A DNA stretch of 64,000 nucleotides from Candidatus Omnitrophota bacterium. Lineage in GTDB: Bacteria > Omnitrophota > Gorgyraeia > Zapsychrales > JANLHA01. This document shows, in pieces, positions 17,315-34,672 of this stretch. The DNA is taken from the NCBI GenBank assembly GCA_963662715.1, contig OY759724.1:659136-723135 (forward strand), given 5' to 3'. Position 1 is the stretch's first letter; the number at the start of each line of letters is the position of its first letter. A program made the position numbers and the translations under genes. The notes under the pieces are model-generated. The model saw nothing but the letters and a program-made list of their open reading frames with translations, had not been told where the DNA came from and did not search any database.

Positions 17315-17401
17315 CTTTCTTCTACCTTATATGGCTTGTTTATTTTCACGGCAGGCATTGTGCTGCCCCCTTGGGGCGCGGAATCCCCAGAAGCCCCCTT
17401 A

Positions 17402-18669: not shown

Positions 18670-20451
18670 TTAAAAGGACCCCCCGGACATGATATCCGAG
18701 GACACATCCCCTGTTATAAGTTTCGGGGTCAAAAATATAACAATTTCCGTCTTTCTCGATAACAGATCTCTATTCCGGAACGCCATACCGACAAGAGGCA
18801 CATCCCCCAGAACAGGGACTTTATTTTCAGAGTTAATTTTCTCATCTTTAATAAGCCCGCCGATGACGATGGTAACGCCGTTCTTAACCATCACCACGGT
18901 TTCTGCTTCAGAGGTTTCCACAACAGGAATCGTGTTATTATTACTGGTCGTCAAAGTCCGGGTCACCGAACTCACCTCCGGACGGATCTTCATGGTAATA
19001 AATTCGTCCCTGTGAATCGTGGGCGTGACGTAAAGCTTAATCCCGACATCAATAAAACTGATGCTTTCGGCTGTCGTCGTAGGGCCACTGGCCGGGGTCG
19101 TTGTCGTCGTTGTCACATACGGTTCCTGGGACCCGACAAGAATCCTCGCCTCCTGATTATTTACGGCCGTGATTCTCGGAGAAGACAAAATATTTGTTTC
19201 TCCCGTGCTCTCCAACGCTTCCAGGAGAGCAGTATAGTCGTCCGTGTCCAAGGTCCCGATTGTGATCGTCCCGCCCTTATCGGAACTGTTGAGAATACTG
19301 AAGTCCCCCTTGATATTCATGTCATGGTAATCCCGGACAATCGCCTCCCAGTCGACCCCGAATTTCTGTTCCTCGCTCAAGACGACCTGCAGAATTTTCG
19401 CTTCAATGAGAACCTGTGATTCCTGGACATCGAAGGATTCCACGATTCTATCCACCTCTTCAATGGCGACGGCGGTATCCCGGACAATGACCTTATTGGA
19501 CCTCGTATCAAATTTGATCTGCCCGACATTTTTCGTTAACACCTCACTGATTTTCTGGGACAGGTCCTCCGCCTTGGCATAGCTTAACTCATAGACTTTT
19601 GTTTCCACCGGCGTATCTATTTTATTGACCAAAGCTTCCATATCAGCGATGACATCAGGAGAGTCCGAGATGACAATAATATTGGACTTGGCGTCGAAAA
19701 TGATTTTCCCCAGGTAGCTCTTCATCTGAGTCAAAAGGGTGACAACATCCTGAGCGTCGGCATAAATGATCTGCAGAATTTTTGATTCAAGGGCCCCGCC
19801 GAATTTATAACCATAGCGTTTTTCAAATTCGGGGGCCGTCATAACATGGATGATGCCCTCATTCTCTTTATAAGCTAATCCATTCGAATCCAGGATGATC
19901 CGTAAAGCATCTTCCCAGTAAACATCCTTCAGGTAAATTGTCACCGTCCCGTTCACACCTTTTCCTGCGATAATATTCTCCCCGCTTTTCTGAGCAATCA
20001 ATTTTAAAACGTCCGTAATATCAACGTTTTTCATCTGCAACACATCGATCAACCCGGAACGAGATACGTCTGTGCCTGAAGATGTCCGGCCGGGAGGGGA
20101 CTCCCCGTTATTCCGGGGGACGAGAGCGGTAGGAAGTTCCTCGTCCAAAGACTCCGCCAAAAAATCCGTCACAACAATGTTCTGCGGGTCCTTATATAAT
20201 TCCTGTCTGACAATGGAACTGATCATCGTTACCGTATTGTCCGTATCCCGGACAACCTGAGAGGTGTTAGAAACGGACCGCTCTTCCCGCAGGTCATTCC
20301 GCTGTCCGTCATAACTGTCAAGAGCCTGGCGAATCATCTCTTCCCGGTCCTGCGTCAATCCTTTGGAAACCGGGGAACAAAGGGCCATGACGACGGCAAA
20401 AACAACCCCCCGGAACATATTTCGTCTCATCAGCTGTATTCTTTCATTCAT
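18670..20451 (-). CDS. gspD: Type II secretion system secretin GspD
   Basis: A signal peptide (from ATG MNERIQLMRRNMFRGVVFAVVMALCSP, RBS GGGAGG) is followed by N0/N1-like domains (TIYLKDVYWEDALRIILDSNGLAY) and the C-terminal secretin domain (NILSSPRITAVNNQEARILVG ... VVMVKNGVTIVIGGLIKD ... VPVLGDVPLVGMAFRNRD ... IVIFLTPKLI). Confidence 0.75.
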   Translation of the reverse strand: MNERIQLMRRNMFRGVVFAVVMALCSPVSKGLTQDREEMIRQALDSYDGQRNDLREERSVSNTSQVVRDTDNTVTMISSIVRQELYKDPQNIVVTDFLAESLDEELPTALVPRNNGESPPGRTSSGTDVSRSGLIDVLQMKNVDITDVLKLIAQKSGENIIAGKGVNGTVTIYLKDVYWEDALRIILDSNGLAYKENEGIIHVMTAPEFEKRYGYKFGGALESKILQIIYADAQDVVTLLTQMKSYLGKIIFDAKSNIIVISDSPDVIADMEALVNKIDTPVETKVYELSYAKAEDLSQKISEVLTKNVGQIKFDTRSNKVIVRDTAVAIEEVDRIVESFDVQESQVLIEAKILQVVLSEEQKFGVDWEAIVRDYHDMNIKGDFSILNSSDKGGTITIGTLDTDDYTALLEALESTGETNILSSPRITAVNNQEARILVGSQEPYVTTTTTTPASGPTTTAESISFIDVGIKLYVTPTIHRDEFITMKIRPEVSSVTRTLTTSNNNTIPVVETSEAETVVMVKNGVTIVIGGLIKDEKINSENKVPVLGDVPLVGMAFRNRDLLSRKTEIVIFLTPKLITGDVSSDIMSGGSF

Positions 20452-20476
20452 AACGGCATACGCCTCCCTCAATATT

Positions 20477-20983
20477 CTATTTGTCCTCCAGCAATAATTC
20501 AACAGGGGAATCATGAATCATAATAACCACCTTATTTTCCTGAATGTCCTGTAATGTGCCTTTCCCAATGCTGTCTCCCCGGGAAAAAAAAGATGTTTGC
20601 TTATCCGCTGTATCTTCTATAATCGCCAAAGGGTGCTGGTCCATAACAATGCCTAAAAGCCGGAAATGAGACACATCCGCCTGCTGTTCCGTAAGAATTA
20701 CTGCGGCCTTTCTTTGCGGAACGGCTTTTGCGGGTTCTTTCCTGTAAGGGATAATAAAAACATCTCTTTCCCCAAAAATCCTGGAATATTCGTCAAAAGA
20801 AACAGATATTTCGGGCTGCAGAAACGCCTCGGAACGGATATTTTTTCCCGGCATCTGAGCTAAGGAAAGCCCTAACGGGACCGCCGGGGAAAAATACAGC
20901 CTCGTGACGATAAATATCGTCAAAAGAACAGAAAAAAACAATAAAATGTTCGTGATCTTCTTGTACGAATACCGGACGTCCAT
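20477..20983 (-). CDS. GspC / PilP-like inner-membrane secretin-interacting protein (putative)
   Basis: From the internal ATG (MDVRYSYKKITNILLFFSVLLTIFIV) there is one TM anchor, then a segment resembling the GspC HR / PilP domain (FRLLGIVMDQHPLAIIEDTADKQTSFFSRGDSIGKGTLQDIQENKVVIMIHDSPVELLL). It sits immediately upstream of gspD. Confidence 0.4.
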   Translation of the reverse strand: MDVRYSYKKITNILLFFSVLLTIFIVTRLYFSPAVPLGLSLAQMPGKNIRSEAFLQPEISVSFDEYSRIFGERDVFIIPYRKEPAKAVPQRKAAVILTEQQADVSHFRLLGIVMDQHPLAIIEDTADKQTSFFSRGDSIGKGTLQDIQENKVVIMIHDSPVELLLEDK

Positions 20984-21166
20984 ATCTCTCCGCGCCTCAT
21001 TTCTTCTGACGGATTTCTCCACCCCCCGGCATCCGGGCCGGGCAGAGAGCCTGTCGGAAATGCTCAAGCAGTACTCTGGCATAAGAGCCCTGTCATGTCA
21101 AATCAAAAATATAAGCCCCATAATTTATTCTCACCGACCTCTGCCTCTTGAATCCCGGGCGTGCCT

Positions 21167-21697
21167 TTAAGGGATCAAAACCTTGGTGAGGCGAAAACGG
21201 CAGCGGAGCTCATTCGTCCGCTGGGATTTTCTGCTGATATCCGCCTCATCAACAAAATAGTCATACGGCGATTTCTGCAATATGAAAATAAATTCCATGA
21301 CTTTAATAAAATCCCCTTCCAAGACCAAACTGACAGAAAATTCCTTATAATGGTTCAATCCTTTAGGCTTGTTCGGTTTCAGGTCGGCAATATTCAGATT
21401 ATTACTGGCAGCCGTTGATTCAATCTCGGTCAGGACACTCGACATCACTTCTCCGTCCGACTGTTTTTGCCGGTAACTGTCCAGCCATTGACGGTATTTC
21501 TGCTGAACAGCCTTACTTTTATGAATCGTACGGGAGGCGCTGAGCCATTCCTTTTGCGAATTCTGAATTTGCTTATCCAGCCATTCCGATCTTTCTTTTA
21601 TGGGCGTATAAACAAAATTATTCAAGACATATACGCCGATAACCCCAAGACAGACAATAAAGACATTTCTTTCCCTGCGGCTAAAATGAGTTGTCAT
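21167..21697 (-). CDS. gspM: GspM / PilO-like T2SS inner-membrane protein (putative)
   Basis: About 176 aa from the ATG (MTTHFSRRERNVFIVCLGVIGVYVL). It has a single N-terminal TM followed by a coiled-coil/periplasmic domain. Its ATG overlaps the gspL stop as TAATG, indicating translational coupling. The call rests on position between gspL and gspC/D. Confidence 0.45.
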   Translation of the reverse strand: MTTHFSRRERNVFIVCLGVIGVYVLNNFVYTPIKERSEWLDKQIQNSQKEWLSASRTIHKSKAVQQKYRQWLDSYRQKQSDGEVMSSVLTEIESTAASNNLNIADLKPNKPKGLNHYKEFSVSLVLEGDFIKVMEFIFILQKSPYDYFVDEADISRKSQRTNELRCRFRLTKVLIP

Positions 21698-23139
21698 TAC
21701 GGCGCCACGCTTTCCTTGTGAGATAATTGACATACAATCTTAAACTCGACATATTCCTCTTTAAACCTTTTCCTTTCCGTGGCATATTCTAAAGCGACCT
21801 TTTGAAATATTGCGGAATCCACCAGATTATTATGAAACTGGTTCACGGAACTTCTCGACTCTCCAAAACCGAGCAGAATAATCGTCCCCTGATGATCCAG
21901 CTGCAGCGATCGGAGAGAAATGGGTTCGGGGACCTGAAGAAAAAGTCTTTTAATAATTTCAACGAGGATCGTGCGGTCCTGAATTTTATCTTTCAAGAAC
22001 TCGATTGATTGAATCGTCTCTTCCGCCTTCCTCACGTCAGGCTGTATGGCCTTGATTTCTGCTTTCATTGCAGCTAATTGTCGGCCTTTCTGATAATTAT
22101 CAAGATTGAAAGCCACCCACAACAAAATGCACGCGCTTGTCAGGACAGCCCAGAACTTAAACAATTCTTTCCTTTTCACCTTTGAAGACTTGCTCTGGAT
22201 AATCTCCGCGGGAATAAGATTCATGCCCTCGAAGACCGGCAGGCCGAGACACCCGAGGCTTGCTGTAAAGGATAAATCTTCCTGATCCGTAAATTGCGGC
22301 TGACGGTCTTTCTTCTGCCGCATAGATATCCCGCGGGGAGAAATCACTTCCACCCCGGGGATTCCTGATGTTTCCAGCTGCCGTTGCAAAGAAACGACGG
22401 GCCGGTCAGAAAGGATATAAAAACGGGATAAAGCACTCCCCATGCGTTCTCTCGCGTACGTTTCGACAGTCATCTGAATCTGTTGCAGATAATCCCCCCC
22501 GCCGCCTTTCAGGATATCCTGATGACCGAAAGGCAGGTAACGGGAAAAAAGCAACCGGTCCCCTTGCACGATACAAAGTTCCGAACAGGAACGGTCAATA
22601 TCAAGGATAATGACGGCATCATTTTTGTGTTGAACTCGCGCAAGGATATTGGCTCTGTACCAGGAAAGGATTCCTATGGATGTCAGGACGACATTTTGAC
22701 AGGAGAGGTGCGCAGACGAGAGCACGTTCAAATATCTTTCTACGATCTCCTTCTGGACAATCTGCACAAGGATTTTAGAGTAGCCTTGCGCATCCTGGCC
22801 GACAATGGCATGACAATAGACGATATCCTCCCGGGCAAAAGGGATCTGCTGATGTATTTGCAAATCGAGCATACGCTGAATCTCCGCTGGAGAATCTGAC
22901 GGCAGCGACATCAACTTTACCGTCACAAAACGCCGGGGGATCACGAGGATAAGCCGCCCGCCCTTGCTGTGCGTCCCGGCGCCTTCCTTAACAATGGCCG
23001 GCAGTTCTTCCGGCGTTGTTTCTGTTATATCCTTTACAAAAGACCGGAAAACTACCGGGAGACCGCGCTGTATTCTTGCCTGCAGGATCTTGACCTGACC
23101 GTCGGTAATTTCAAACGTGCTTCTGTATTTGTCTTTCAT
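21697..23139 (-). CDS. gspL: GspL-like protein (PilM-type actin-like cytoplasmic domain fused to PilN-like TM/periplasmic domain)
   Basis: The N-terminal half has a PilM/FtsA-like fold (ILDIDRSCSELCIVQGDRLLFSRYLPFGHQDI). Then comes a TM segment (FWAVLTSACILLWVAF) and a PilN-like periplasmic part. The track start at 23172 is a TTG, so the start was set at the next ATG. Confidence 0.55.
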   Translation of the reverse strand: MKDKYRSTFEITDGQVKILQARIQRGLPVVFRSFVKDITETTPEELPAIVKEGAGTHSKGGRLILVIPRRFVTVKLMSLPSDSPAEIQRMLDLQIHQQIPFAREDIVYCHAIVGQDAQGYSKILVQIVQKEIVERYLNVLSSAHLSCQNVVLTSIGILSWYRANILARVQHKNDAVIILDIDRSCSELCIVQGDRLLFSRYLPFGHQDILKGGGGDYLQQIQMTVETYARERMGSALSRFYILSDRPVVSLQRQLETSGIPGVEVISPRGISMRQKKDRQPQFTDQEDLSFTASLGCLGLPVFEGMNLIPAEIIQSKSSKVKRKELFKFWAVLTSACILLWVAFNLDNYQKGRQLAAMKAEIKAIQPDVRKAEETIQSIEFLKDKIQDRTILVEIIKRLFLQVPEPISLRSLQLDHQGTIILLGFGESRSSVNQFHNNLVDSAIFQKVALEYATERKRFKEEYVEFKIVCQLSHKESVAP

Positions 23140-23156
23140 GATGTCTCTTTCAGTCC

Positions 23157-24251
23157 TCAGCTTCTTTTCCAATAGACAATGGAAAAATTATCCCGGAAAA
23201 CAACGGCCTCTATATTAGAATGAACGGCCGATGAACCATATCCCCCATCAACGTAAATACGGAAATAGCTGGAAATCTTTGTGCGGCTTTGCAGCATTTT
23301 CAGGGCAATAATTCTCTCTTCGCTGTTTAAAGCCAACTGGCCGACATCAATAATTTTGTCGTCAGCCGTCCCTAACTGCCCGTCGTCCCCTTTTCGGTAG
23401 TCGCATATTTTTTCTACAACACCGTCCGCGTCCTCCAGCTCCGTGTTCGTCTGGCTTCCCGTCAAGGACCTGGCCAGAGCCGTGAGAACCGGGCGCGAGG
23501 CGGTATCCATATTCACCTGAAACCTGCCGGCCGGGGGATAAACGGTCACATAATCTTTAATTTTTTTAAAAATATCCTCGGTCATGCCTTTGACCAAACG
23601 AAGTTCATCGACACTTTCAAAGGCGTAATTCTTACAGTGTCGTGGCGGGCTCTGATTGCTGTAAAAATCCTCTTCCGCGCCGTAAGGGGCGTTGAACGTC
23701 GTTTCATCCCCATCAACCCAATCGACAACAGAAGCCGCAACGATATCCGCGGCCTCCTCTTCAAAACCAAAATATATCACAAGATATTTTAAAATCTGGT
23801 AATTTTGTGAAGTCAGCAGATTAACGTTTATCCGGCTTTCCTCATCTTCAAATCCGAAGAAAACCTGCCTCTCCTCATCCTTCATTTTCATAAATTTAAC
23901 GTCAAAAAATCCGTCTCCCAACGGGACATTGCGGAAAAGCTCCTCCGGCTGCTGTTTGTCCTCCAGAACAATACCGCACTGATAAAGAGTATCAAACGTC
24001 CGCGTCTCAGAATTCAAGCTGTCTTTTTGAAGCTGGGCCATCGCATACATCAATCCGGCCAGGGCCGCGTGTTTCGTCCTAAACTTTTCCCTCTGATGCT
24101 TTGTTAAAGCCAATTCCACACTGGCCTGCCGGCTTATCCCCATGATTAAGACAGAAAGAATGGCTACGATCCAAAGCACGACAATAAGCATGACCCCGGA
24201 CCGGTCCTTCAGCCGGACCGGTTTTTTCTTTGTTAAAATATCTGTCATCAT
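23157..24251 (-). CDS. gspK: Minor pseudopilin GspK
   Basis: The N-terminal hydrophobic helix GVMLIVVLWIVAILSVL is the typical GspK N-terminus, followed by a large periplasmic domain. The track start is a TTG, so the start was set at the ATG with a GGAG RBS (MMTDIL...). Confidence 0.55.
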   Translation of the reverse strand: MMTDILTKKKPVRLKDRSGVMLIVVLWIVAILSVLIMGISRQASVELALTKHQREKFRTKHAALAGLMYAMAQLQKDSLNSETRTFDTLYQCGIVLEDKQQPEELFRNVPLGDGFFDVKFMKMKDEERQVFFGFEDEESRINVNLLTSQNYQILKYLVIYFGFEEEAADIVAASVVDWVDGDETTFNAPYGAEEDFYSNQSPPRHCKNYAFESVDELRLVKGMTEDIFKKIKDYVTVYPPAGRFQVNMDTASRPVLTALARSLTGSQTNTELEDADGVVEKICDYRKGDDGQLGTADDKIIDVGQLALNSEERIIALKMLQSRTKISSYFRIYVDGGYGSSAVHSNIEAVVFRDNFSIVYWKRS

Positions 24252-24268
24252 TGCGTTCTCCGGTGACA

Positions 24269-25072
24269 TCATTTCCAAAGCCCTAACGGGACAAGAATAT
24301 CTTTCTGCAACGCCAAAATATCTTCGGAATCCTGGGGATTCACGAGGACCATTTCCACTCTGATCAGAGACGGATGCTCAGTTTTTTTCCACGCCGTCTC
24401 CCAGCCGACATCATCCCCGGCAGCCCCTCTAGCGACATGCGCATAAGAGAACTTCAAGCTCCCCTCCTGAACATAACGGTTCAGGATCTCAAGCTCCTCT
24501 CCTAATTGCGATTCTTCCGAATCCCCCTCTTCGGAAGGAAAAAGTTTTTCCTCCCTGACAAGATATTGCAGGCGTTCTCCGTCGTCCGTCTGCGTTAACG
24601 TTATCGGGGTATTCCGGGAAGAAGAACTGCCGACAATAACTTTATGCACGACCCCGTAATCCGGATCCATTAAAAAATACCGCACTTCTTTCAGCCCGTC
24701 TTCCGTGGGGCGGAGCAATGTCAGCCGGGAAGCTTCTCCACAAAAAAAATCATCAGCATCCTCCCCCCCGTTTCCCTTTTGATGATAGGGCACCATACTT
24801 TCAACATCCAGGGCGAGCACATCCAAAGACCAAAAGGCCGACCGGTTGAGTTGTTCCAATCTCCGGGTCTTCTTTTGAATCTGTATGGCGCTTGCATAGG
24901 TGCCATACAGGCTTCCGGCAATAATGGAGACCATCCCTAAAGCCAACAGGATTTCCACTAAAGTAAAACCGAACGCATACGCGGGCCCGGAGAAGGCTCC
25001 GCCGGCCTTTCCCGGCCCTCTGTTTTTCCGGCAGGCGATTTCACATCCGTTTTTCATAACATCACGTGGCAT
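24269..25072 (-). CDS. gspJ: Minor pseudopilin GspJ (prepilin-type N-terminal methylation motif)
   Basis: Contains a GFTLVEILLALGMVSIIAG prepilin cleavage/methylation motif. Start set at the ATG (MPRDVMKNG), giving a leader of about 35 aa. The longer track start would give an implausible 59-aa leader. The start remains uncertain. Confidence 0.5.
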   Translation of the reverse strand: MPRDVMKNGCEIACRKNRGPGKAGGAFSGPAYAFGFTLVEILLALGMVSIIAGSLYGTYASAIQIQKKTRRLEQLNRSAFWSLDVLALDVESMVPYHQKGNGGEDADDFFCGEASRLTLLRPTEDGLKEVRYFLMDPDYGVVHKVIVGSSSSRNTPITLTQTDDGERLQYLVREEKLFPSEEGDSEESQLGEELEILNRYVQEGSLKFSYAHVARGAAGDDVGWETAWKKTEHPSLIRVEMVLVNPQDSEDILALQKDILVPLGLWK

Positions 25073-25493
25073 TAAAAACGAACCCCTGCATAGAGAAAGA
25101 ACGCTTTCTCCCGCCCAACATCCACGAGACTTCAAAAAGAAACTCATTCAGCCGTTCGCCGACGCTTTCATTGGCACTCTGAGCAGATTGCAGGGCATAA
25201 TGAAATTCCTCAAAAGGGTCCGGAAAGTCCCCCTCTTCCTGTTTATCCTGCTCGATACTCCCCCGGGCGAAAATACGCGACATATAATTATCCGAAATGT
25301 AAATGGCTTTCGAATAGTCACGGCTGTAAACCGTGGCCCTGTAACTCTGCGCCAAAGAATGGATAAGAAACGTCAGGCTCAGGGAAAAAACCGCGATGGC
25401 CAAAAGGACTTCCAGAAGCACAATCCCGGCGACAGAGGAAAAGACCTGAAAAGCTTTCCGTTGTTTTTTCCGAACAAAAAATTTCTTTAACAT
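25062..25493 (-). CDS. gspI: Minor pseudopilin GspI
   Basis: 143 aa. The N-terminus has GIVLLEVLLAIAVFSLSLTFL, a type-IV-pilin-like hydrophobic helix with Glu at +5. Confidence 0.5.
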   Translation of the reverse strand: MLKKFFVRKKQRKAFQVFSSVAGIVLLEVLLAIAVFSLSLTFLIHSLAQSYRATVYSRDYSKAIYISDNYMSRIFARGSIEQDKQEEGDFPDPFEEFHYALQSAQSANESVGERLNEFLFEVSWMLGGRKRSFSMQGFVFNAT

Positions 25494-25502
25494 AAACCCG
25501 CT

Positions 25503-26006
25503 CTAAGAATCCGAGGAAAAGGGCAATACTTCCACCAGCCCCCTGACCCCTTCCGTTGTTATTAAAAAACAATCCGTTTCCCGGCAGATATTGGCCTGAA
25601 ATTTTTCAATTTGTCCATCAGGATAAAAGACGACGGACTCTTTGCCTGCCGTTAACTGCATATCATCCGGGACCTCGTCCCGGCGTCCCCACGGACCTTC
25701 CAAAGCCTGAAACTGGCCGCCGTTCTCCTCCCAAGAATCGTCCGGGAAAGACTGTTCAATCCCGTACGTCTGAAACTGGGAGTCAAAAGAGAGCCGCATT
25801 TCAATCCCGCGGGTGATCGCGGCGCTTTGCGCATAACGCATCAAATAGGCCAGTTTATAAGCCGTATTCCGCAACTGGAGCCGCGCCAAGGACACGCTGA
25901 AATGAGGCAAGGAAACCGCTGCTATCACAGCCAACAGGACCACCACAATTAAAATTTCGATTAAAGTGAATCCTTCCTTCAACCTCCGCTCTGCCTCTTG
26001 TATCAT
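25503..26006 (-). CDS. gspH: Minor pseudopilin GspH
   Basis: MIQEAERRLKEGFTLIEILIVVVLLAVIAAVSLP carries the canonical G-FTLIE prepilin motif. The length of 167 aa fits GspH. Confidence 0.6.
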   Translation of the reverse strand: MIQEAERRLKEGFTLIEILIVVVLLAVIAAVSLPHFSVSLARLQLRNTAYKLAYLMRYAQSAAITRGIEMRLSFDSQFQTYGIEQSFPDDSWEENGGQFQALEGPWGRRDEVPDDMQLTAGKESVVFYPDGQIEKFQANICRETDCFLITTEGVRGLVEVLPFSSDS

Positions 26007-26008
26007 CT

Positions 26009-26536
26009 CTACTCCTGCTGCCAGTTGACGACATCGTCATCGCTTTCTATCCCGTCAGATCCATAAGAAAAAAGGTCATAACCTTCTGAATTATGAGCAC
26101 CCGGACACTTATAAACATACTCCTGCTTCCAGGGATCCAGCGGGACGACTTTCTTTTTGAGATACGGCCCGCCCCAATCCTGCGGGACCGGCGCTTCTGT
26201 CGGAGCTTCAATTAAAGCTTTTAATCCCTGTTCTGTTGTCGGGAAACGGCCGTTATCAAGCTCATACATATCCAAGGCCACGGATAAATTGGCCTCTATA
26301 TCAGCAACCGCTGCCGCTTGCTGAGCCTGCGATTTTTTCCCGGAAAAATTGGGAACAACCATAGCGGCCAAAACCCCGATAATAACAACTACGAGCAATA
26401 TTTCCACCAGCGTAAATCCCCTGCAGGTCCGGGCAAGGCCCGCGGCCCGGCGGCCCCTCTTATAAAGTTGAAATGCGATTGCCCCACCCCCCTGATCAAC
26501 TCTCTGATACAGCATGAAAATTATTTCTTTCCTCAT
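26009..26536 (-). CDS. gspG: Major pseudopilin GspG
   Basis: RGFTLVEILLVVVIIGVLAAMVVPNF ... ANLSVALDMYELDNGRFPTTEQGLKALIEAP ... DPWKQEYVYKCPG is the classic GspG sequence. Start set at the ATG with an AAGGGGGA RBS (MRKEIIF). The track ORF begins further upstream. Confidence 0.8.
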   Translation of the reverse strand: MRKEIIFMLYQRVDQGGGAIAFQLYKRGRRAAGLARTCRGFTLVEILLVVVIIGVLAAMVVPNFSGKKSQAQQAAAVADIEANLSVALDMYELDNGRFPTTEQGLKALIEAPTEAPVPQDWGGPYLKKKVVPLDPWKQEYVYKCPGAHNSEGYDLFSYGSDGIESDDDVVNWQQE

Positions 26537-26661
26537 AATGTGTCCCCCTTTTTGATATCTTAAAGATCCCGGGAGAACATCTCGTCCCGGGCATATTTCC
26601 TCTCCCGCGGCATTTACAGTCCGGGACAAAGAGCCTCGCGACAAAGCCGCTGTTATTTTTC

Positions 26662-27894
26662 TCAACGAATAATCAGATTCATCCTGAAAATAGGCAAAAG
26701 CATTCCCAAGACAATAAAACCGATAAACAAACCTAAAACAAGAATCAAGACAGGTTCAATAAGGCTCGTGATTCTTTTCATGGCTCTTTCAGACTGATGT
26801 TCGTAAAATACCGCCAGTTTTGTCAGTCCGACATGTAACTGGCCTGTTTCTTCCCCGATCGCGACCATATTGGCGGCGGCCTCCGGGAAAAGAGAACTGG
26901 CCTGCATCGACTGTGTTAAACTCGCCCCTTCTGTGACCTGCTGCGTCATCTTAGCGATATCCTGCTTCAGGAGTTCATTATCAATGACATGCTGAACCGT
27001 ATCAATGGCTGTGACGACCGTTACCCCGTTGCCCAGCAACGTGCCCAACGTCCTGGCAAACCGGCCTATTTCAACGTCCTTAATAAACTGTCCGATAACA
27101 GGCAATTTCAGTTTCAAACCGTCTATCTTTATCTTCCCTTCCGTCGTGGAATAAAGATGCTTTAAATATACGCCGGTCAAAACACCGGCCCCGATCAGCA
27201 ACCACCAAAAACGGGCCAGGAACCGGCTGACAGCCAGAAGCATCATCGTCACCAACGGCAATGATTCGTTCATATCAATAAAAATCGTCGAGATACGGGG
27301 GATCACCCATGTCAAGATCACAAAAATTGTCACTCCGCCGGCCAGCAGCAAAAAAGCCGGATAGAAAAGACTGGTTCTGACCTGGGCCCGCACATCATAA
27401 TCCTTCTCGACAAAATCAGCGACGCGGTCCAAAACAATATTAAGATTCCCGCCCACCTCTCCTGACCTGATGATATTGACATACAGCGGAGAAAAAAGGG
27501 CCGGGAATTGCGTCAAGGCCGTTGACAACGGCCCTCCCGCCTGAATGACGGAGATCATCTGCTGGGTCATCTGCTTGAAATGCTTATTTTTAATTTGTTT
27601 ATGAACAAGCTGCAGAGCCCGCAAAACAGGAACCCCGGCATTGACGAGGTCACTGAGCTGTCTGGTAAAAATCATAACGTCCTGAACCCGGACTTTCTGG
27701 GCCAACGGGGAAGGAGATATAACATTTTTGATCTTTTTCTGAATCTTTTTATCCGATGTCACTTTAACATCCAGGGGCGTATACCCCGTCTGAAGAAGAC
27801 GGCTGATAGCCATATCAACGTTATCGGCCTCAATCATCCCTTCGATAATTTGTGCGGGCCCCTGTTTAGCCTTATAATAGAAAACCTGTTTCAT
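26662..27894 (-). CDS. gspF: Type II secretion system inner-membrane platform protein GspF
   Basis: 410 aa. It shows two repeated GspF/PilC cytoplasmic-domain units separated by TM helices, and has the typical N-terminus (FYYKAKQGPAQIIEGMIEADNVDMAISRLLQTGYTPLDV). Confidence 0.8.
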   Translation of the reverse strand: MKQVFYYKAKQGPAQIIEGMIEADNVDMAISRLLQTGYTPLDVKVTSDKKIQKKIKNVISPSPLAQKVRVQDVMIFTRQLSDLVNAGVPVLRALQLVHKQIKNKHFKQMTQQMISVIQAGGPLSTALTQFPALFSPLYVNIIRSGEVGGNLNIVLDRVADFVEKDYDVRAQVRTSLFYPAFLLLAGGVTIFVILTWVIPRISTIFIDMNESLPLVTMMLLAVSRFLARFWWLLIGAGVLTGVYLKHLYSTTEGKIKIDGLKLKLPVIGQFIKDVEIGRFARTLGTLLGNGVTVVTAIDTVQHVIDNELLKQDIAKMTQQVTEGASLTQSMQASSLFPEAAANMVAIGEETGQLHVGLTKLAVFYEHQSERAMKRITSLIEPVLILVLGLFIGFIVLGMLLPIFRMNLIIR

Positions 27895-27912
27895 AAATAA
27901 CGCCGTTTCCCC

Positions 27913-29622
27913 TTAGAAATTCTTATCATCCTTCGTCACTCGGATAATTTCACTGGCCGTGGTTTGGCCTTTAACAACCTTTTCCCAGCCGTGCTGCAGC
28001 AGCGACACCATACCTTTATCCCTGGCTTTCCTTGCGATCTGGCTGGCTGTGGCCCGGGACAAAATCATTTCGCGAATCTCTTCATTCAGCGAAAGAAACT
28101 CGTAAATACCTTCCCGCCCGCGGTATCCCGTGAAATGACAAGACTCGCATCCGTCCGCCTCGTAAATCGTCTGCGACGTTTCTATGCGGACCGACGCTCC
28201 GAATATCTTGAGCATGTCTTCCGTAACAGAAGCCGGTTTCTTGCATAAAGGACATAACGTGCGGACGAGTCTTTGCGCGATAAAACACTCCACGGAACTG
28301 CAAATCAGATAAGGCTCCACGCCCATGTCCACAAGCCGGGTTATCCCGCTGGCCGCGTCATTCGTGTGCAAAGTCGAGAAGACCAAATGCCCGGTCAGGG
28401 CTATCTGTGTCGCTATTTCGGCGGTTTCCTTGTCCCGGACTTCTCCGACCATCATGATGTCCGGGTCATGGCGCAGCATGGCTCTCAACCCCTGGCTGAA
28501 CGTCAAGTGTATCGCGGGATTAATCTGTATCTGCGTGATGCCCTTCAACTGATATTCAATAGGGTCTTCTATCGTAATGATCTTTTTATCCGGATGGTTG
28601 ACATGCGCGAGGCAGGAATACAATGTCGTGGTTTTCCCGCTGCCGGTCGGCCCCGTAACAAAGATAATCCCGTGGGGTTTTTGGATCAACTGCTCAAGCA
28701 AAGCCTGCTCTCTGGGGGACAACCCCAGATCATTCATATCATAAAGCCGGTTTGAACTGAGGATACGGATCACGACACTTTCGCCGAACTGGGTCGGCAA
28801 AAATGACACACGGAGATCCAGGTTGATTTCCCCGACCTTAACTTTAAACCGCCCGTCTTGGGGCAGTCTTTTCTCCGCGATGTTCAGGTTGGACATGATT
28901 TTGATCCGTGAATTGATGGCTTCCTTAAAATGCCAGATATTCATAGGAACTTTTGTATCATAAAGAATTCCGTCGACCCTGTACCGGACTTTCAAATCTT
29001 TTTCGTAAGGCTCAATATGGATATCCGTCGCACGATCCTTATAGGCCTCCAGCAGGATCTGGTTGATGAACTTCCCGATTGAGGCATCGGAATCGATTTG
29101 TTCGATATCATCAACGCCCTTATCCTGTTCGTGCACCGCCGCAAACGTTCCCTTCATTTGCGCGATCGTCTCGGCTCCGACCCCGTAATACTGCCTGATG
29201 GCCTCCAGGATATCTTGCTCCCGGGCCAAAACGGTTTTTATTTTTGAAGCATGCACCAAATGAACCCCGTCTTGAATATAAATATTGTGGGGCTGGGCGG
29301 TCGCAATGGTCAAAAGATCCTCTTCCGAATCATAATCGACCGGAATGACTTTATAATGAGTCGCAATGGTGACCGGGATTCTCTGCAGAATACTTTTCTC
29401 AATGCGGAGGAGTTTTAAATCAAGAAAATCCACCCCCAGATATTCCGCCAACAGTCGATACATCCTCTTCTCTTCTTTGATAAAACCCAAATTGAACAAG
29501 ACAACCCACAACAGCTCGTGTGTCGCCTGCTGCTTCAGCAAGGCCTCATCCAACTGCTGTTGCTGGATAAAACCCTGTTCAACAAGCAGTGCCCCGAAAT
29601 CTGTTTCTGTGATGATTTTCAT
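27913..29622 (-). CDS. gspE: Type II secretion ATPase GspE
   Basis: An N-terminal N1E-like domain is followed by Walker A VTGPTGSGKTTTLY, Asp-box, Walker B IMMVGEVRD and a tetracysteine motif (CPLCKKP ... CESCHFTGYRGR). An AAGGGA RBS precedes the ATG. Confidence 0.85.
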   Translation of the reverse strand: MKIITETDFGALLVEQGFIQQQQLDEALLKQQATHELLWVVLFNLGFIKEEKRMYRLLAEYLGVDFLDLKLLRIEKSILQRIPVTIATHYKVIPVDYDSEEDLLTIATAQPHNIYIQDGVHLVHASKIKTVLAREQDILEAIRQYYGVGAETIAQMKGTFAAVHEQDKGVDDIEQIDSDASIGKFINQILLEAYKDRATDIHIEPYEKDLKVRYRVDGILYDTKVPMNIWHFKEAINSRIKIMSNLNIAEKRLPQDGRFKVKVGEINLDLRVSFLPTQFGESVVIRILSSNRLYDMNDLGLSPREQALLEQLIQKPHGIIFVTGPTGSGKTTTLYSCLAHVNHPDKKIITIEDPIEYQLKGITQIQINPAIHLTFSQGLRAMLRHDPDIMMVGEVRDKETAEIATQIALTGHLVFSTLHTNDAASGITRLVDMGVEPYLICSSVECFIAQRLVRTLCPLCKKPASVTEDMLKIFGASVRIETSQTIYEADGCESCHFTGYRGREGIYEFLSLNEEIREMILSRATASQIARKARDKGMVSLLQHGWEKVVKGQTTASEIIRVTKDDKNF

Positions 29623-29666
29623 AATCCCTTCTTCATGTTTTCATCCGGCCCGCCTTAATCAGCCCT

Positions 29667-31586
29667 TTAAAAATGCCGGTCCTCCTGAGCCAGAACAATC
29701 GCCAGGTTCTTTTGGGCGCTCTCATAACGAGGATCAATACGCAAAGCTTCCTGGAAATGATAGACAGCATGAACGGTCTCTCCCTGTTTCATATATATAG
29801 CACCGACGCTGTTATGCACCAAAGCGTTATCCGGATGATAAATAAGAATCTCGGAAAAATGCTTGCGGGCCTTTTCCAGAGCCCCTTGCTTCATATATAA
29901 ATCTCCCAAAACACTATGAATATATAAACTGTCCGGTTGACCGGCCAACGCCTGCAGATACATTTCCCGGGCTTGCTCGGGCTTGTTCTGAAGCACATAG
30001 AAGTTCCCCAAATTCTTTAATGTTTCCGGATCACGACTGTCCAGAGCGCGGGCTTTCAGCAAATATTTCTCCGACAGCTCATATTGTCCTTCTTCCATAA
30101 GAAGAACACCGTAATTGCTGTTGGCTTGCGCATACTCAGGATTCAACCGCAGGGCCTGCTCATAAAAAACTTTTGCCCTTTTTAAGTCTCTTTCTTCATA
30201 AAATATATTCCCAAGATTATTATAATTTCGAAAATTTTCCGATTGAAACAACGCGGCATCCAGAAAATGCCTTTTCGCCGGCTCTTTTTTCCCGTCTTTA
30301 AGATAGGCCAATCCCAGGTTATAATGCGCAACCGGATGACGGGGGGCATGCCGCAAAACAAATCCCCATAAAGAATAGCCGTTGTTCCAGACCCGGCTCT
30401 GCTGAAAGGTCCCCAGCGCCATCCCTCCGATGATGAATACCGCGGCGACATTCAAGGATATCCTCTGAATCCTGTGGCTGGCCGTTGCGGAAGCCAGCCT
30501 CTCATACAGAATCCCGCATAGGATACAGAAGCCTAAACAGGGCAAATACATAAACCTGTCCGCCACGGGATTGAGCCCGGAGGAAACGGGATCCGTACGC
30601 AACAGGAAAAAAATCGACACCAGGTAAAACAGGAAAGAAAAATGCAGCCATTTGTTACAGTTTTTAGTGAGTAAAAAAAGGACCAGCAAGGCACATGCCA
30701 GCAAAGATAAAAAGTACGGCACATGGGTCCAGGACACAGGGAGCGGGTAAAAATAAAGCGGGGAGAGATGAACCGGGAGAAAGAATTTGTAAACATAAAA
30801 AACAAACGACCACAGCCATAATAAAATATTTACCGAGACCGGGCTGCCGGGGCTCCCCCCCATATTCAGCCTGTAGGTTATCCACGCTACGGGAACAGCG
30901 TATAACACAAAAGGGATTTTTTCCTTCAAAACTTTCCCGCACAATCTCCTGCCGCGGAACCAATCGCAAACAAGAAGCGCAAGAGGCAGACTCACCGCCA
31001 TAGGCTTGGACAGCATGCCCAGGAATCCGAATAATATAGCAGCATAGTAGGGTCTTCTTTCTCCTGTCCGGATAAAATTCATATACTGCACCAGAGCCAG
31101 CATATAAAAGAACGCGTACAGCACATCTTTCCGGGCGCTCATCCAGGCAACAGGTTCGACGTGTATGGGATGAAGGCCAAAAATCAGGGCAGCTGCACCG
31201 GCAGCCCTGGCGGATGCCCCCAGCTGAAGGGCGAACTTATAGACGAGACAAACCACGCCTATATGAAGCAGCAGATTATCGAGATGATAGACAATCGGAT
31301 TCTCTTGAAAAAAAAGATGTTCCAGGGAGAAAGACAGGATCGTTAACGGGATATATATATCGCAAACTGTACTCTTGAAGATCCGGACAATATTGCCCAG
31401 GCTGAATTGACGGGCCATTTGATTCCATTCAAAATTATTCTGATCATCCCAGACAAAATGCCCCGTTAAAACCGGCCCATAAGCGGCCAGTATCAGCACA
31501 ATCCCTAAAAAAAGCCGTCCCCGGCCGGGAGATAAAAAAGAAATCTTTTTCATAGAAAGACGCATAAAATGAATCGCAATCTGCAT
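29667..31586 (-). CDS. TPR-repeat membrane protein with GT-C-like (PMT/TMTC-like) N-terminal polytopic domain
   Basis: The N-terminal roughly 400 aa contains about 10 TM helices. It has a DD-type motif (HFVWDDQNNF) in the first periplasmic loop, as in GT-C glycosyltransferases of the PMT/ArnT type. The C-terminal roughly 230 aa consists of TPR repeats (NLGNIFYEERDLKRAKVFYEQALRLNPEYAQA...). The start could be ATG 31586 or ATG 31553. Confidence 0.55.
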   Translation of the reverse strand: MQIAIHFMRLSMKKISFLSPGRGRLFLGIVLILAAYGPVLTGHFVWDDQNNFEWNQMARQFSLGNIVRIFKSTVCDIYIPLTILSFSLEHLFFQENPIVYHLDNLLLHIGVVCLVYKFALQLGASARAAGAAALIFGLHPIHVEPVAWMSARKDVLYAFFYMLALVQYMNFIRTGERRPYYAAILFGFLGMLSKPMAVSLPLALLVCDWFRGRRLCGKVLKEKIPFVLYAVPVAWITYRLNMGGSPGSPVSVNILLWLWSFVFYVYKFFLPVHLSPLYFYPLPVSWTHVPYFLSLLACALLVLFLLTKNCNKWLHFSFLFYLVSIFFLLRTDPVSSGLNPVADRFMYLPCLGFCILCGILYERLASATASHRIQRISLNVAAVFIIGGMALGTFQQSRVWNNGYSLWGFVLRHAPRHPVAHYNLGLAYLKDGKKEPAKRHFLDAALFQSENFRNYNNLGNIFYEERDLKRAKVFYEQALRLNPEYAQANSNYGVLLMEEGQYELSEKYLLKARALDSRDPETLKNLGNFYVLQNKPEQAREMYLQALAGQPDSLYIHSVLGDLYMKQGALEKARKHFSEILIYHPDNALVHNSVGAIYMKQGETVHAVYHFQEALRIDPRYESAQKNLAIVLAQEDRHF

Positions 31587-31631
31587 ATGTTTATGACACG
31601 ATAAACCTGTTAATATATCCCTGCCGAACGG

Positions 31632-33203
31632 TTATTTCTCCTGAAGCTCCGGGATGAAAAAGATGATATACTCCGTACGGAGAATAAATCTGTTTTCACT
31701 GCGAAAGATAAAGCCAAAAAGGGGCAAATCGCCCAGGAGGGGAACTTTAGACGTTTTTTCAACTTCTTTTTCTCTCAACAATCCCCCCAGAATAATCACG
31801 TCCGCCCCGTCGATCGGCAGTTCCGCAGAAACCTGCGGCTGAAACGGCTTGTCTGAAGAAGCCTCCAGCGTCGGACGATTATCGGCCAGCCAGTGAAGAT
31901 GCGGACTCAGCCGGACAAGATATTTCTTTTCCGGAAGGGCATTGACCAGAATTTTCATCTTCATGGCAAACCCTTCATCATCCTTAAAATCCCCGGGGAC
32001 ATTCATCGTGTCCCAGCCCCATTCCTTCTCACTATTTAACTGGGAGACCCCGGAAAAATCGTTCAAATCAATAAGCTGGCCCGCGGCATCTAAGGCGTCT
32101 TTTAAGACAGGAAAATCTTCCTTCGTAATTGTGCCCAGGCTCAACCGGTTCTCCTCAGGTGAGCCGTTCTGTTGATCCCCTAAAATATCAAAATTTTTAT
32201 AATCGGAAACAATGGCGTCCCAGTCAATGCCCCCCTGATGTTCCTCATTCAGTTGAATTCTCGAAACCTGGATGCGCCAACGGACTTTAATAAGTTTATC
32301 CAGGTCCTGAATCATTTGCTCAATCTCCGATATTTTCTGCGCCGTATCCGTCACGGTTACGGAATTCGTGTCCCCGTCAAGAACAAGCTGCCCCAGATCT
32401 TCGGTGAGTGTCTTGGAGATCTTCTCCACGACAATGTCCGCCTTAACAAACTGGAATGAAAACACCTTTGTGACCAGGGGCGGGGTATCCCAGGACCGCA
32501 GCAAAGATTGCATTTGCTTCAAGGGTTCTTCGCTGTCCATAAGAATAAGCTGCTGGTTCTTTTCATCAGCGAAAAAATGTCCTTTAAGGCTCTTCAGCTG
32601 CACCAGATTCTTTTTCATGTCATCCACGGAACGGTATTCCAGTTTAATAACTTCAACCTGTGTTTCCGGGGCAAAAGGACGCCCCATCTTCTGTTCATAC
32701 TCTTCCCGGGAAACAACACGAATGACCTGCTCCTCCTGCATATAAGCCAAGTCACTCATCAACGTCACGACGGACAATAAATTCTCAAGGGAAACATCCT
32801 TTAAGCACAAAGTGATAAACCGAGTCGGCAGGACATCAGCTTCAATATTTAAATGGCTCTTTTCTGTCAAAACTTTTATGACATCCGACAAAGGGGTCCG
32901 GGCAAAATCCACTTCGGATATGACCCGATCCCACTCGTCTTCCATTCTCTTATCTTCTTCCGGGGCAGCGGCAGGACTGACAGCGACAGCCCGCTGGACA
33001 TCCAACTCTATGGTAAAAAATTCCTTCGTCTTACCCGGGGAAAGCCCCTCCTGTTCCGGAACAGTTTCGTTCATCGGGACCGGCAACGAATCGTCGGAAG
33101 AAACAATTTCATTTTTAAGCGATGGAATCCGGGCCCCGGATTCTTCCGCATACACTTCAGCCCCTAAAAAAAGGCAAACAAGAAAAAGACAAAAATATCG
33201 CAT
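31632..33203 (-). CDS. Divergent secretin-family outer-membrane protein (second secretin)
   Basis: A signal peptide (MRYFCLFLVCLFLGAEVYA) and N-domain-like segments are followed by a C-terminus alignable to the gspD secretin domain (GGIDWDAIVSDY ... KYLVRLSPHLHWLADNRPTLEAS ... DVIILGGLLREKEVEKTSKVPLLGDLPLFGFIFRS ... EYIIFFIPEL). Compare gspD: GVDWEAIVRDY ... IKLYVTPTIHRD ... TIVIGGLIKD ... VPVLGDVPLVGMAFRNRD ... EIVIFLTPKL. Confidence 0.55.
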   Translation of the reverse strand: MRYFCLFLVCLFLGAEVYAEESGARIPSLKNEIVSSDDSLPVPMNETVPEQEGLSPGKTKEFFTIELDVQRAVAVSPAAAPEEDKRMEDEWDRVISEVDFARTPLSDVIKVLTEKSHLNIEADVLPTRFITLCLKDVSLENLLSVVTLMSDLAYMQEEQVIRVVSREEYEQKMGRPFAPETQVEVIKLEYRSVDDMKKNLVQLKSLKGHFFADEKNQQLILMDSEEPLKQMQSLLRSWDTPPLVTKVFSFQFVKADIVVEKISKTLTEDLGQLVLDGDTNSVTVTDTAQKISEIEQMIQDLDKLIKVRWRIQVSRIQLNEEHQGGIDWDAIVSDYKNFDILGDQQNGSPEENRLSLGTITKEDFPVLKDALDAAGQLIDLNDFSGVSQLNSEKEWGWDTMNVPGDFKDDEGFAMKMKILVNALPEKKYLVRLSPHLHWLADNRPTLEASSDKPFQPQVSAELPIDGADVIILGGLLREKEVEKTSKVPLLGDLPLFGFIFRSENRFILRTEYIIFFIPELQEK

Positions 33204-33334: not shown

Positions 33335-34672
33335 TTATTCTTTCAAATCAGATTTAAACTTATCCAGTTGTTGCCGCGAATAAACATTGTCAGGGTATTC
33401 CCTCACCAAACCTTCTTCAATATCAATGGCTTCCTGTATCCGCCCCATTTTGTAAAGGACCTCGGCTTTGGTATCTAAAAAAGCAAAATTATCCGGATCC
33501 AAAGTCAGGGCCTTATTTATCAATTCAAGCGCACGGGGCAAATGGATGTCATTTTCAGCATAAATCCAGGCCAAATCATTATAAGGCCCCGGAGATGAAG
33601 GTTGATGGTTAATGCTTTTAAGCAACAGCGTTTCTTTACCCTTGAAGTCAAGCTCGTGATACTGTTGTTGAAATTCAAAATAAGTCGGATTACTCATCGC
33701 AAAAATGACAATAGAAATAAAGGTCATGCCGCCGTTGTAAACATAATGCATAATAATCCCCGGGATAGCCGATCCCGTACGCATTCTCTGTAAAGTCAGG
33801 ATCAAACCCAGGACGGCCACCACCAATATGGCCAGCCAATCCCCCCAATATTGTTCAACGTGCAGCAAGGCAAAGAGGCATGGAATGATAATGATCGCCG
33901 CCTTTTTTCCTTTGATCTTCTCCAGGATATAATAAAAATACCCCCGGAAAAGAATCTCCTCCAGGAAAGGCGCCATAAAAACCGCAACAATCATCAACGC
34001 CGGGAAGACCCACATGGCCGTTGTTGATTCAGCAAGCTGGCTGAGCGGAGTGGCCGGCTGGGTTTCCCGCGAATAAATAATCCAGCTGGAAATCCCCGCC
34101 ATGCAGGCACCGGCCAAAAACGGCACGACGGTCAATTTCCACCAAGAAAGATTATGCCGCTTAAGCCCGAGTATTTCCAGGAACGATATGGACGTATACT
34201 TATGCACGGAACGCCGGATAATCCATAAAAGAACAAGCGGGGAGGCGGCAGAAATAACCACAACTTCCCCCAGTTCGGATTGCAGCGGCGGGTAAAGGCT
34301 GTAAAGGATCTTAAGCCCCAACGTAAACAGGGACATCCATACAGACCATATCAGGATTGATCCCAAAAGGTCCACGGACAGGGAAAGACGAAGCCCAAGG
34401 ACCTCCGGGTCCTTTCTTTCCCCGGGCAAATGTCTTGTAAAGCCATACCGTTTAACCAAATAAACCGGAAGGACAAAAAAGAAGCAATACGTTGAAAGCT
34501 GTGCCCACTGCTGAGAAAAAACGAATGCGATCAGAAGTAAGAATCCGTACACGGCCACAGGCCAGGTCAGGGTCTGAAAATATTTTTTATACAGGGCAGG
34601 ATCTTGTCTCCTGATAACGAAAGAATCAAGATAAAGGAACCCAAAAACAATTAATAATAAAACCGGAGACAT
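33335..34672 (-). CDS. CPBP-family intramembrane glutamic endopeptidase (CAAX protease/Abi) fused to C-terminal TPR domain
   Basis: A polytopic N-terminus carries the CPBP motifs EEILFRGY (motif 1), LFALLHVEQY (motif 2) and HYVYNGG (motif 3). The C-terminal roughly 110 aa are TPR-like (YNDLAWIYAENDIHLPRALELINKALTLDPDNFAFLDTKAEVLYKMGRIQEAIDI). A strong AAGGAAG RBS is present. Confidence 0.65.
   Translation of the reverse strand: MSPVLLLIVFGFLYLDSFVIRRQDPALYKKYFQTLTWPVAVYGFLLLIAFVFSQQWAQLSTYCFFFVLPVYLVKRYGFTRHLPGERKDPEVLGLRLSLSVDLLGSILIWSVWMSLFTLGLKILYSLYPPLQSELGEVVVISAASPLVLLWIIRRSVHKYTSISFLEILGLKRHNLSWWKLTVVPFLAGACMAGISSWIIYSRETQPATPLSQLAESTTAMWVFPALMIVAVFMAPFLEEILFRGYFYYILEKIKGKKAAIIIIPCLFALLHVEQYWGDWLAILVVAVLGLILTLQRMRTGSAIPGIIMHYVYNGGMTFISIVIFAMSNPTYFEFQQQYHELDFKGKETLLLKSINHQPSSPGPYNDLAWIYAENDIHLPRALELINKALTLDPDNFAFLDTKAEVLYKMGRIQEAIDIEEGLVREYPDNVYSRQQLDKFKSDLKE

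Follow-up and report, generated by a model that had tools for sequence, protein, structure and literature searches.

We analysed a 64,000-nucleotide (nt) window of Candidatus Omnitrophota DNA carrying a gene cluster that an earlier reading of the sequence (here, the original prediction) had described as a complete type II secretion system (T2SS)-like set. Every gene between positions 12879 and 34672 lies on the minus strand, and 13 of these co-directional open reading frames (ORFs) occupy 18670-33203. Gene identities were assigned by scanning with Pfam and NCBIfam hidden Markov models (HMMs) and comparing bit scores with the cut-offs of the models; 40 window ORFs were scanned with Pfam, the remaining four measuring at most 125 amino acids (aa). 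The scans identified every component from E to D, bearing out the claim of a complete set, in the order E-F-G-H-I-J-K-PilMN-PilO-GspC-like-D. Matches were far above chance for T2SSE/GspE (E=1.7e-176), GspF (5.3e-108), GspG (1.8e-44) and GspK (2.1e-37), and for the secretin PilQ and GspD models on D (1.9e-83 and 2.3e-75). The set had been said to fill 18670-33203; all its genes are real, but they cover only 18670-29622, and the remaining 3.6 kb holds two genes that had gone unlisted, a second secretin gene that we call secP (31632-33203) and a fusion of a GT-C-fold glycosyltransferase with a TPR domain (29667-31586). The description of the order as canonical and the spacing as tight likewise stands in part: neighbouring genes overlap or are mostly separated by short gaps, but the placement of C and D at the 3' end is not proteobacterial.

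A T2SS-type set of predicted pseudopilins

The pseudopilins carry the clearest T2SS signal. The major pseudopilin GspG (26009-26536, in an ORF extending to 26665; cleavage site G|FTLVE) scored 151 bits against TIGR01710, above the equivalog cut-off of 88.85. Its best PDB matches were exclusively the T2SS proteins PulG, GspG and EpsG, and the C-terminal motif YDLFSYGSDG...DVVNW is legible in the sequence. The GspH-like minor pseudopilin (25503-26006, G|FTLIE) passed the Pfam GspH model (24.9 bits, cut-off 21; N_methyl 27.7), and the GspI-like protein (25062-25493, G|IVLLE) had TIGR01707 gspI as its best match at 30.3 bits, under the cut-off of 44.35. For the protein in the GspJ position (24269-25072, G|FTLVE), an N-terminal methylation motif was the sole detected feature, and it was assigned by position and size; the gene is kept in the related loci L001-L004, L012 and L013. 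GspK (23157-24272) matched T2SSK_1st with 74 bits (cut-off 26.2) and NF037980 with 129.3 (cut-off 130), and its cleavage site, G|VMLIV, lacks Glu5, an absence typical of GspK proteins.

Class III signal peptides of the form G|F/I-x-L-x-E are present in G, H, I and J, and the cleavage motifs hold in four relatives, position -1 of H being Ala in L002-L004. The PilA, PilV and Com models matched only the N-terminal helix that these proteins share, with 36 bits against a cut-off of 400 for PilA and 20 against 52.2 for PilV. The original prediction had held that assignment of these genes to PilE, FimT, PilV, PilW or PilX would tell against it; G, H, I and K instead score as Gsp proteins. By these models, the pseudopilin set is T2SS-type.

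The likely start of GspG is an ATG with a ribosome-binding site at 26536. All in-frame ATG, GTG and TTG starts (26416-26665) give a leader of at least 33-40 residues before G|FTLVE; leaders in relatives measure 11-17 residues, and the window has ~190 nt extra between F and mature GspG. Either the leader of GspG is thus exceptionally long, or its start is non-canonical.

Motor, platform and secretin combine T2SS and pilus features

The assembly ATPase (27913-29622; T2SSE 453 bits) belongs to the GspE/PilB family and has an MshEN-type N-terminus. It scored 587.6 against TIGR02533 gspE (cut-off 630.25), aligning from residue 80 only, and 572.9 against TIGR02538 PilB (cut-off 675.65), with which it is colinear over its full length (model positions 2-564). 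Its best PDB match was Myxococcus xanthus PilB (463.6 bits), with EpsE at 403.6, and its score against the PilT family TIGR01420 was 183.8, under the cut-off of 319.1. This PilB/GspE-like protein is the sole T2SSE-family ATPase in the window, where Pfam and NCBIfam revealed no PilT, PilA-type pilin or PilY1. The inner-membrane platform protein GspF/PilC (26662-27894) passed Pfam T2SSF (205 bits) and reached 361.8 against TIGR02120 (cut-off 424), which was still the top-scoring model, above those for PilC.

Residues 9-52 of the ATPase (29467-29598) matched the MshE-type cyclic di-GMP (c-di-GMP) motif model NF053729 at 40.8 bits (cut-off 38). The first Arg of the motif is Asp in the window protein and is variable in relatives, and control by c-di-GMP through this motif is a possibility. 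In L005, PilZ and GGDEF genes lie upstream of a CPBP protease-secretin pair.

In the place of GspL is a 480-aa PilM-PilN fusion (PilMN, 21697-23139). Its N-terminal half matched PilM TIGR01175 (E=4e-15, 55.6 bits, cut-off 133) and scored 26.7 against the Pfam PilM cut-off of 27; its C-terminal part passed PilN PF05137 (38.4 bits, cut-off 22.8). The fusion of PilM-like and PilN-like domains recognised in the original prediction is confirmed by these matches. The GspL model TIGR01709 gave 22.4, under its cut-off of 65, and PilM is the only solved relative in the PDB. The PilMN family comprises 537 clusters (50% identity, E<=1e-30); among the 150 listed, almost every member is a fusion of full length. 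The adjoining PilO-like protein (21167-21697) passed the PilO model (24.5 bits, cut-off 22) and fell below the cut-offs of T2SSM (18.4, cut-off 27.8) and GspM NF040576 (16.9, cut-off 60). Since the architecture of GspL is itself that of PilM-like plus PilN-like domains, PilMN can be read as the GspL equivalent, and on this architectural basis PilMN and PilO would be the functional equivalents of GspL and GspM.

The connector is a transmembrane (TM)-anchored protein resembling the GspC HR domain and PilP (20477-20983). It scored 18.7 against Pfam T2SSC, a weak match below the cut-off of 27; a profile of eight orthologues searched against the PDB retrieved the GspC HR domain (3oss, E=0.0016) and PilP (3jc8, 0.019). 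No PDZ domain was detected with Pfam, NCBIfam or the PDB profile. The evidence for the GspC originally predicted here is thus weak. Secretin D (18670-20451) has an N0/STN domain, two Secretin_N domains and a full secretin domain, the Pfam Secretin match of 168.4 bits covering profile positions 1-168. It scored 280.8 against the PilQ model (cut-off 284.35) and 254.2 against GspD TIGR02517 (cut-off 351.35), and its PDB matches to XcpQ (138.9) and PilQ (135.4) were near-equal. The combination of a pilus-type platform and ATPase with Gsp pseudopilins marks the system as an intermediate between T2SS and type IVa pilus (T4aP), not a canonical Gsp system.

Around the gate hairpin, D-type secretins of this clade have a conserved Thr-rich stretch, PYVTTTTTTPASGPTTTAES, present in the D proteins of the window, L001-L004, L008, L009 and L013, with variants in L011 and L012. 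This stretch falls within the very segment that secP has in degenerate form. Given the GT-C enzyme encoded in the cluster, O-glycosylation of the stretch is conceivable.

A presumably unlinked prepilin peptidase

As predicted, the window contains no GspO or PilD gene: Peptidase_A24 was absent by Pfam from the 40 scanned ORFs (the four unscanned being at most 125 aa), and tblastn with a Pseudomonas aeruginosa PilD sequence gave no match either in the window or, up to 10 kb from the cluster, in the related loci L001-L021. As a positive control, the same query detected homologues in the unrelated loci L042, L051, L056 and L058. Since class III signal peptides are present on all five pseudopilins, their processing would have to come from an unlinked prepilin peptidase. 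In Denise et al. (2019), this peptidase is a "loner", commonly unlinked, that T2SS, T4aP and Com systems can exchange (PMC6668835), so that a locus without it is nothing unusual.

Junctions and operon signals

Genes of the cluster are tightly spaced, with overlaps at two junctions. The predicted TAATG overlap between the GspL and GspM equivalents is real, spanning 21699-21695 (PilMN stop 21699-21697, PilO ATG 21697-21695), and the stop of J and the start of K overlap by ATGA. Gaps in the cluster are otherwise 2-45 nt, except at F/G (~125 nt), O/C (84-183 nt), CPBP/secP (131 nt) and D/amidase, where 143-200 nt separate the genes. This last gap is the widest intergenic one of the block and sits exactly where the secretion genes end.

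The original prediction had seen no obvious terminator before the downstream genes. None that we found is convincing, but the D/amidase junction has, besides the largest gap, a weak terminator-like hairpin at the very end of D (18702-18680). Folding of the D/amidase spacer indicated no unusual structure (z=-1.39). A consensus terminator scan gave 40 matches against a shuffled mean of 23, each weak; overall, promoter and terminator scans yielded weak consensus matches above shuffled expectation and no convincing gene-end terminator or operon boundary. Rfam at the gathering threshold returned a single tRNA in the window; the stretch from the T2SS genes to the que genes accordingly has neither a riboswitch nor a leader RNA. 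On sequence signals of this kind, operon structure, co-transcription and functional coupling are putative.

A second secretin with a degenerate gate segment

The 523-aa product of secP (minus strand) has a signal peptide and passed both Secretin_N (58.8 bits, cut-off 28.2) and Secretin (45.4, cut-off 27.5), the latter match being limited to positions 103-167 of 169. An AlphaFold2 model (predicted local distance difference test score 80, with folded parts above 90) has the N0-N1-N3-beta-domain layout, and Foldseek matched it to InvG, GspD, PilQ and XcpQ in the PDB (E values from 6e-19 to 5e-15). Alignments located what is missing: the segment LSSPRI...ILVGxxxPY...VTP, which D shares with every D-type relative and with outgroup secretins, is replaced in secP, and the hairpin is ~14 residues shorter. 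Residues 442-456 of secP have low confidence in the model. From published secretin structures, we take the replaced segment to be the gate.

In a neighbour-joining tree, the Omnitrophota secretins form two sister clades. D-type members have the canonical motif and end T2SS cassettes; secP-type members have the degenerate motif and adjoin a CPBP protease gene, the amidase gene or both. Orthologues of secP are 47-51% identical, and the distinct clade reaches down to ~30%. We considered whether secP is a pseudogene or decaying duplicate and ruled this out on the intact ORF, the confident fold and the conserved orthologues. It is best described, from its sequence and modelled fold, as an old, maintained paralog with a degenerate gate and not as debris. 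A role as a second or hetero-oligomeric channel is possible.

Upstream of secP in the window is a CPBP/Rce1-like intramembrane protease gene with a C-terminal TPR region (33335-34672, minus strand; Pfam Rce1-like 70.3 bits), and CPBP genes adjoin secP-type secretins in L001, L005, L006, L007 and L019.

A GT-C/TPR fusion at the head of the cluster

Between secP and the ATPase gene, at the head of the cluster, is the 639-aa GT-C/TPR fusion (29667-31586, minus strand). Its membrane part is a polytopic GT-C fold of ~410 aa, the first periplasmic loop of which has an acidic motif, and a WDD is conserved; across 50 homologues, D47 is invariant and D48 nearly so, along with several charged residues. 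Five isolated membrane domains were run against Pfam at E<=10 and gave no relevant match, nor did the GT-C membrane domain have a PDB sequence match. It thereby differs from the TMTC and PMT GT-C O-mannosyltransferases, in that it has no membership by sequence in a curated family. The TPR domain aligned to OGT (23.5) and to the type IV pilus pilotins PilW and PilF (~21.5). The TPR pilotins PilF, PilW and Tgl are small lipoproteins, whereas the window gene encodes a polytopic membrane protein.

A gene of this family also heads the cluster in L001-L004 and L007. Because the family is hugely expanded in Omnitrophota, with very many paralogs, its specificity for secretion could go either way. Glycosylation and a pilotin-like TPR chaperone function are both possible roles.

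Conserved linkage to a housekeeping block

Downstream of D, the co-directional block continues, as predicted, through Amidase_3 (17402-18526; the predicted amiC), murI (16511-17314), queD, queC, queE, queF, rph and rdgB (together 12879-18526, minus strand, by Pfam and NCBIfam), and its rdgB end converges on a plus-strand AsmA/DUF748 gene. Many homologues are named Omnitrophota or Omnitrophica, and related loci are labelled Candidatus Omnitrophota, apart from one labelled Planctomycetales. A profile search of genome contigs with a PilMN alignment returned three loci; a single PilMN query returned none.

Loci L001-L004 share 45-51% identity with the window at PilMN and 71-75% at the ATPase (37-82% across genes). 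All four keep the window order between secP and rdgB and have AsmA on the opposite strand, and L001 also has CPBP upstream; L007 shares the 5' part, from CPBP to F. At ~30% PilMN identity, the E-F-G-H-(I)-J-K-MN-O-C-D core recurs in L009, L012 and L013, although I and J were not detectable in L009. Since the genes are intact and conserved, they are evidently under purifying selection. In L012 and L013, the order is E/F-G-H-(I)-J-K-MN-O, an AAA ATPase (checked in L012), and then C-D-amidase-murI-queDCEF-rph-rdgB.

Other loci preserve fragments of this arrangement: D-amidase-murI-que in L008 and L011, and D-E-F-G-H-(J)-K-MN-O in L014 and L016. In L005, L006, L020 and L021, the secretin-amidase-murI-que order occurs with no T2SS genes between, and CPBP lies upstream in L005 and L006. 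L001-L004 repeat the amidase-to-rdgB order, and so do L005, L006, L008, L011-L013, L020 and L021, either completely or up to where the locus stops. The exceptions are small: additional DNA separates queF from rph in L013 and rph from rdgB in L012, and L020 has no rph match. A secretin followed by the amidase is the most persistent adjacency. The original prediction had regarded linkage of a secretion system to an amidase and murI as unusual; it is instead conserved in Omnitrophota relatives down to ~30% identity. On gene order, the linkage is a lineage-typical arrangement, not a genome-specific oddity, and a functional tie is putative. Because queDCEF, rph and rdgB are unrelated housekeeping genes, conserved order is no proof of shared function.

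Two of the related loci differ in informative detail. In L017 (1308-10899), a secP-type secretin-amidase-murI-queD-queC series is followed directly by E-F-G-H-J, suggesting that T2SS genes moved within the same housekeeping block. In L012, a 274-aa AAA ATPase resembling ExeA, GspA and MshM (7857-8681; best NCBIfam match pepcterm_ATPase, 174 bits, below the cut-off) lies between PilO and the GspC-like gene. L013 and L009 have a similar interval of ~1.4-1.7 kb between O and C; in the window and L001-L004, the O/C gap is just 84-183 nt, without an AAA ATPase.

By inference, the amidase may open peptidoglycan for the machine. Pfam detected no AMIN domain in the amidase or in either secretin, and because the amidase is without one, the AMIN-mediated link between PilQ and septal peptidoglycan is not directly applicable. 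At its N-terminus, the amidase has a domain resembling Cu_amine_oxidN1, and its LLPGC sequence may be a lipobox.

Other features of the window

The HExxH protein at 35325-36125 has a Sec signal peptide and Peptidase_Mx1/LIC13305-like matches. It was considered as a substrate, and nothing links it to the secretion system. Upstream of its gene are two multi-TM proteins with no Pfam match, at 36878-38431 (517 aa) and 36122-36646 (174 aa); the longer of the two may also be polytopic and glycosyltransferase-like. At 58789-59577, the window encodes a DUF1194 protein that has a PEP-CTERM sorting signal. At 59894-64000 on the minus strand, a gene running off the window end encodes more than 1,325 aa with ~30 near-identical 44-aa Cys/Glu/Lys-rich tandem repeats (MDKPEACEDLGLLSQEECAVCAEDPKKECVEDQKTKEGRQCYSC) and no meaningful Pfam match; this repeat protein accounts for the strong GC and AT skew at 60-64 kb. 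The window's sole RNA gene, a minus-strand tRNA-Pro(TGG) at 9484-9560, shares sequence with the annotated 5' end of a PtsP-like gene in its longest ORF (GAF and PEP-utilising domains, 7188-9545). The true start of the PtsP-like gene must therefore lie further downstream.

A probable T2SS-type machine and its rivals

Taken together, the gene content makes it probable that this region encodes a complete, intact T2SS-type machine of the type IV filament superfamily in Omnitrophota. In the established T2SS model, to which we turn for analogy, a hexameric ATPase of the GspE/PilB family would drive the GspF platform, which would polymerise GspG into a short periplasmic pseudopilus capped at its tip by H-I-J-K. 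PilMN, PilO and the GspC-HR/PilP-like protein would connect the platform in the inner membrane with the N0 ring of D, and folded periplasmic proteins would be pushed out through secretin D. The unlinked peptidase is probably shared with T4aP systems, the genes for which are common in all Omnitrophota classes (PMC10066038). A T2SS machine on a T4aP-type platform is consistent with the view that T2SS derived from T4aP (PMC6668835).

Several observations weigh against this interpretation. The platform, the ATPase architecture and the secretin fail T2SS-specific models and are as much or more T4aP-like, and the evidence for GspC is weak. TXSScan-based surveys of the phylum report T4aP and not T2SS (PMC10066038), and clusters of this kind may consequently have been classed as pili. 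The search for a prepilin peptidase, which covered the window and the related loci, located none, and the secretion role and its substrates are putative.

The same features allow a non-retractile T4aP-like or 'generic' type IV filament machine that builds an external fibre for attachment to prey or host. The PilM/PilN/PilO platform, the full-length PilB-like ATPase with its MshEN N-terminus and the marginally better fit of D to PilQ (280.8 against a cut-off of 284.35) are what such a machine would share, and Omnitrophota reportedly encode and express T4aP and are proposed predators or parasites (PMC10066038). This fibre is nevertheless unlikely, since the major subunit is an unambiguous GspG with structural relatives only among T2SS proteins, the minor pseudopilins are H, I, J and K, with GspK as the cap, and the window is without a PilA-type pilin, PilT/PilU, PilY1 or FimU/PilVWX.

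A different proposal is that the cluster, secP, the amidase and murI form one envelope-remodelling module into which T2SS genes were merely inserted. In this module, secP and the amidase would jointly act on peptidoglycan or the outer membrane, for instance during division or envelope biogenesis. The proposal draws on the four loci in which Amidase_3-murI-que directly follows a secP-type secretin and T2SS genes do not intervene (L005, L006, L020, L021), on the CPBP protease upstream of two of these (L005, L006) and on the division of secP-type and D-type secretins into sister clades. We judge it improbable: D-type secretins that end T2SS cassettes are equally amidase-adjacent in the window, L001-L004, L008 and L011-L013; the block also includes the unrelated housekeeping genes queDCEF, rph and rdgB, for which order alone does not imply a shared function; and the amidase and secretins are without AMIN domains.

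As doubtful is a broader account of secP, in which secP-type secretins would be an old undescribed family that lost its gate and became linked to CPBP upstream and the amidase downstream. With D, secP would then form a dual-channel or hetero-oligomeric portal, or else a separate envelope-remodelling module, and the GT-C/TPR protein would glycosylate or chaperone components. Finally, a competence (DNA-uptake) pseudopilus with a secretin, of the HofQ/ComG type, is very improbable: both secretins match HofQ only weakly in NCBIfam; H, I and J have weak matches to ComGD, ComGE, ComGF and ComGG, but all Com matches are below cut-off and driven by the shared N-terminal helix; GspK has a weak HHH_3/ComEA-like match, and a helix-hairpin-helix motif is a usual feature of that protein; and ComEA, ComEC, DprA and PilT are absent from the window and the related loci examined.

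Relation to known systems

The predicted T2SS-type machine shares with the proteobacterial T2SS (Gsp/Pul/Eps/Xcp) the ATPase, GspF, an equivalog GspG, H-I-J-K with a Glu5-less GspK, an HR-like connector, the N0/N1/N3/secretin domains of the secretin, the absence of a retraction ATPase and the E-to-M order. It departs from that system in having, by sequence models, a PilM-PilN fusion and PilO for GspL and GspM, an ATPase with a full PilB-length N-terminus, C and D at the 3' end and a GspC-like protein without a PDZ or coiled-coil domain. Genes for gspO, gspN, gspA/B and a pilotin are lacking in the window, and secP and the GT-C/TPR gene are extra.

With the T4aP (PilBCMNOPQ), it has in common PilM/N/O homology, a PilP-like beta-domain, a PilB-like ATPase and a PilQ-like secretin score. 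In contrast to the T4aP, its PilM and PilN are fused, GspG stands in for PilA, the minor pseudopilins are Gsp-type, the PilP-like protein is TM-anchored and not a lipoprotein, and the window is without PilT/PilU, PilY1 or AMIN. The 'chimeric' T2SS of Chlamydiae and the T2SS-like systems of Bacteroidetes are likewise non-proteobacterial with mixed T2SS and T4aP signals (PMC6668835). The chlamydial T2SS, however, has no minor pseudopilins or GspLM, whereas the window encodes all five pseudopilins as well as a platform equivalent to L and M; in Bacteroidetes, the major pilin has diverged strongly, whereas the window GspG is canonical.

Within the phylum, West-Roberts et al. (2023) described T2SS-like loci by giant genes, in a cluster of more than 10 genes with gspD/E/F homologues (bioRxiv 10.1101/2023.11.21.568195). 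Those loci carry a Tad-like rcpC and a rotamase and precede giant ORFs; the window has neither gene and places its cluster in a housekeeping block. Surveys of Omnitrophota otherwise report T4aP and Tad systems (PMC10066038). In the literature that we searched, we found no description of this cluster type, the secP family or the secretin-amidase adjacency. Completeness of the set and an unlinked peptidase are ordinary; as a variant, the locus stands out in that its composition is hybrid, its secretin is duplicated with one copy gate-degenerate, a GT-C/TPR gene is present and the synteny with housekeeping genes is conserved.

Omnitrophota are uncultured, mostly ultra-small and suspected to be predatory or parasitic, and the best hints at their interactions with hosts come from their machines for secretion and attachment. 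A clean, complete system in between T4aP and T2SS bears on the evolution of T2SS from pili, and secP, together with the phylum-wide secretin-amidase adjacency, provides testable leads on how trans-envelope machines are built.

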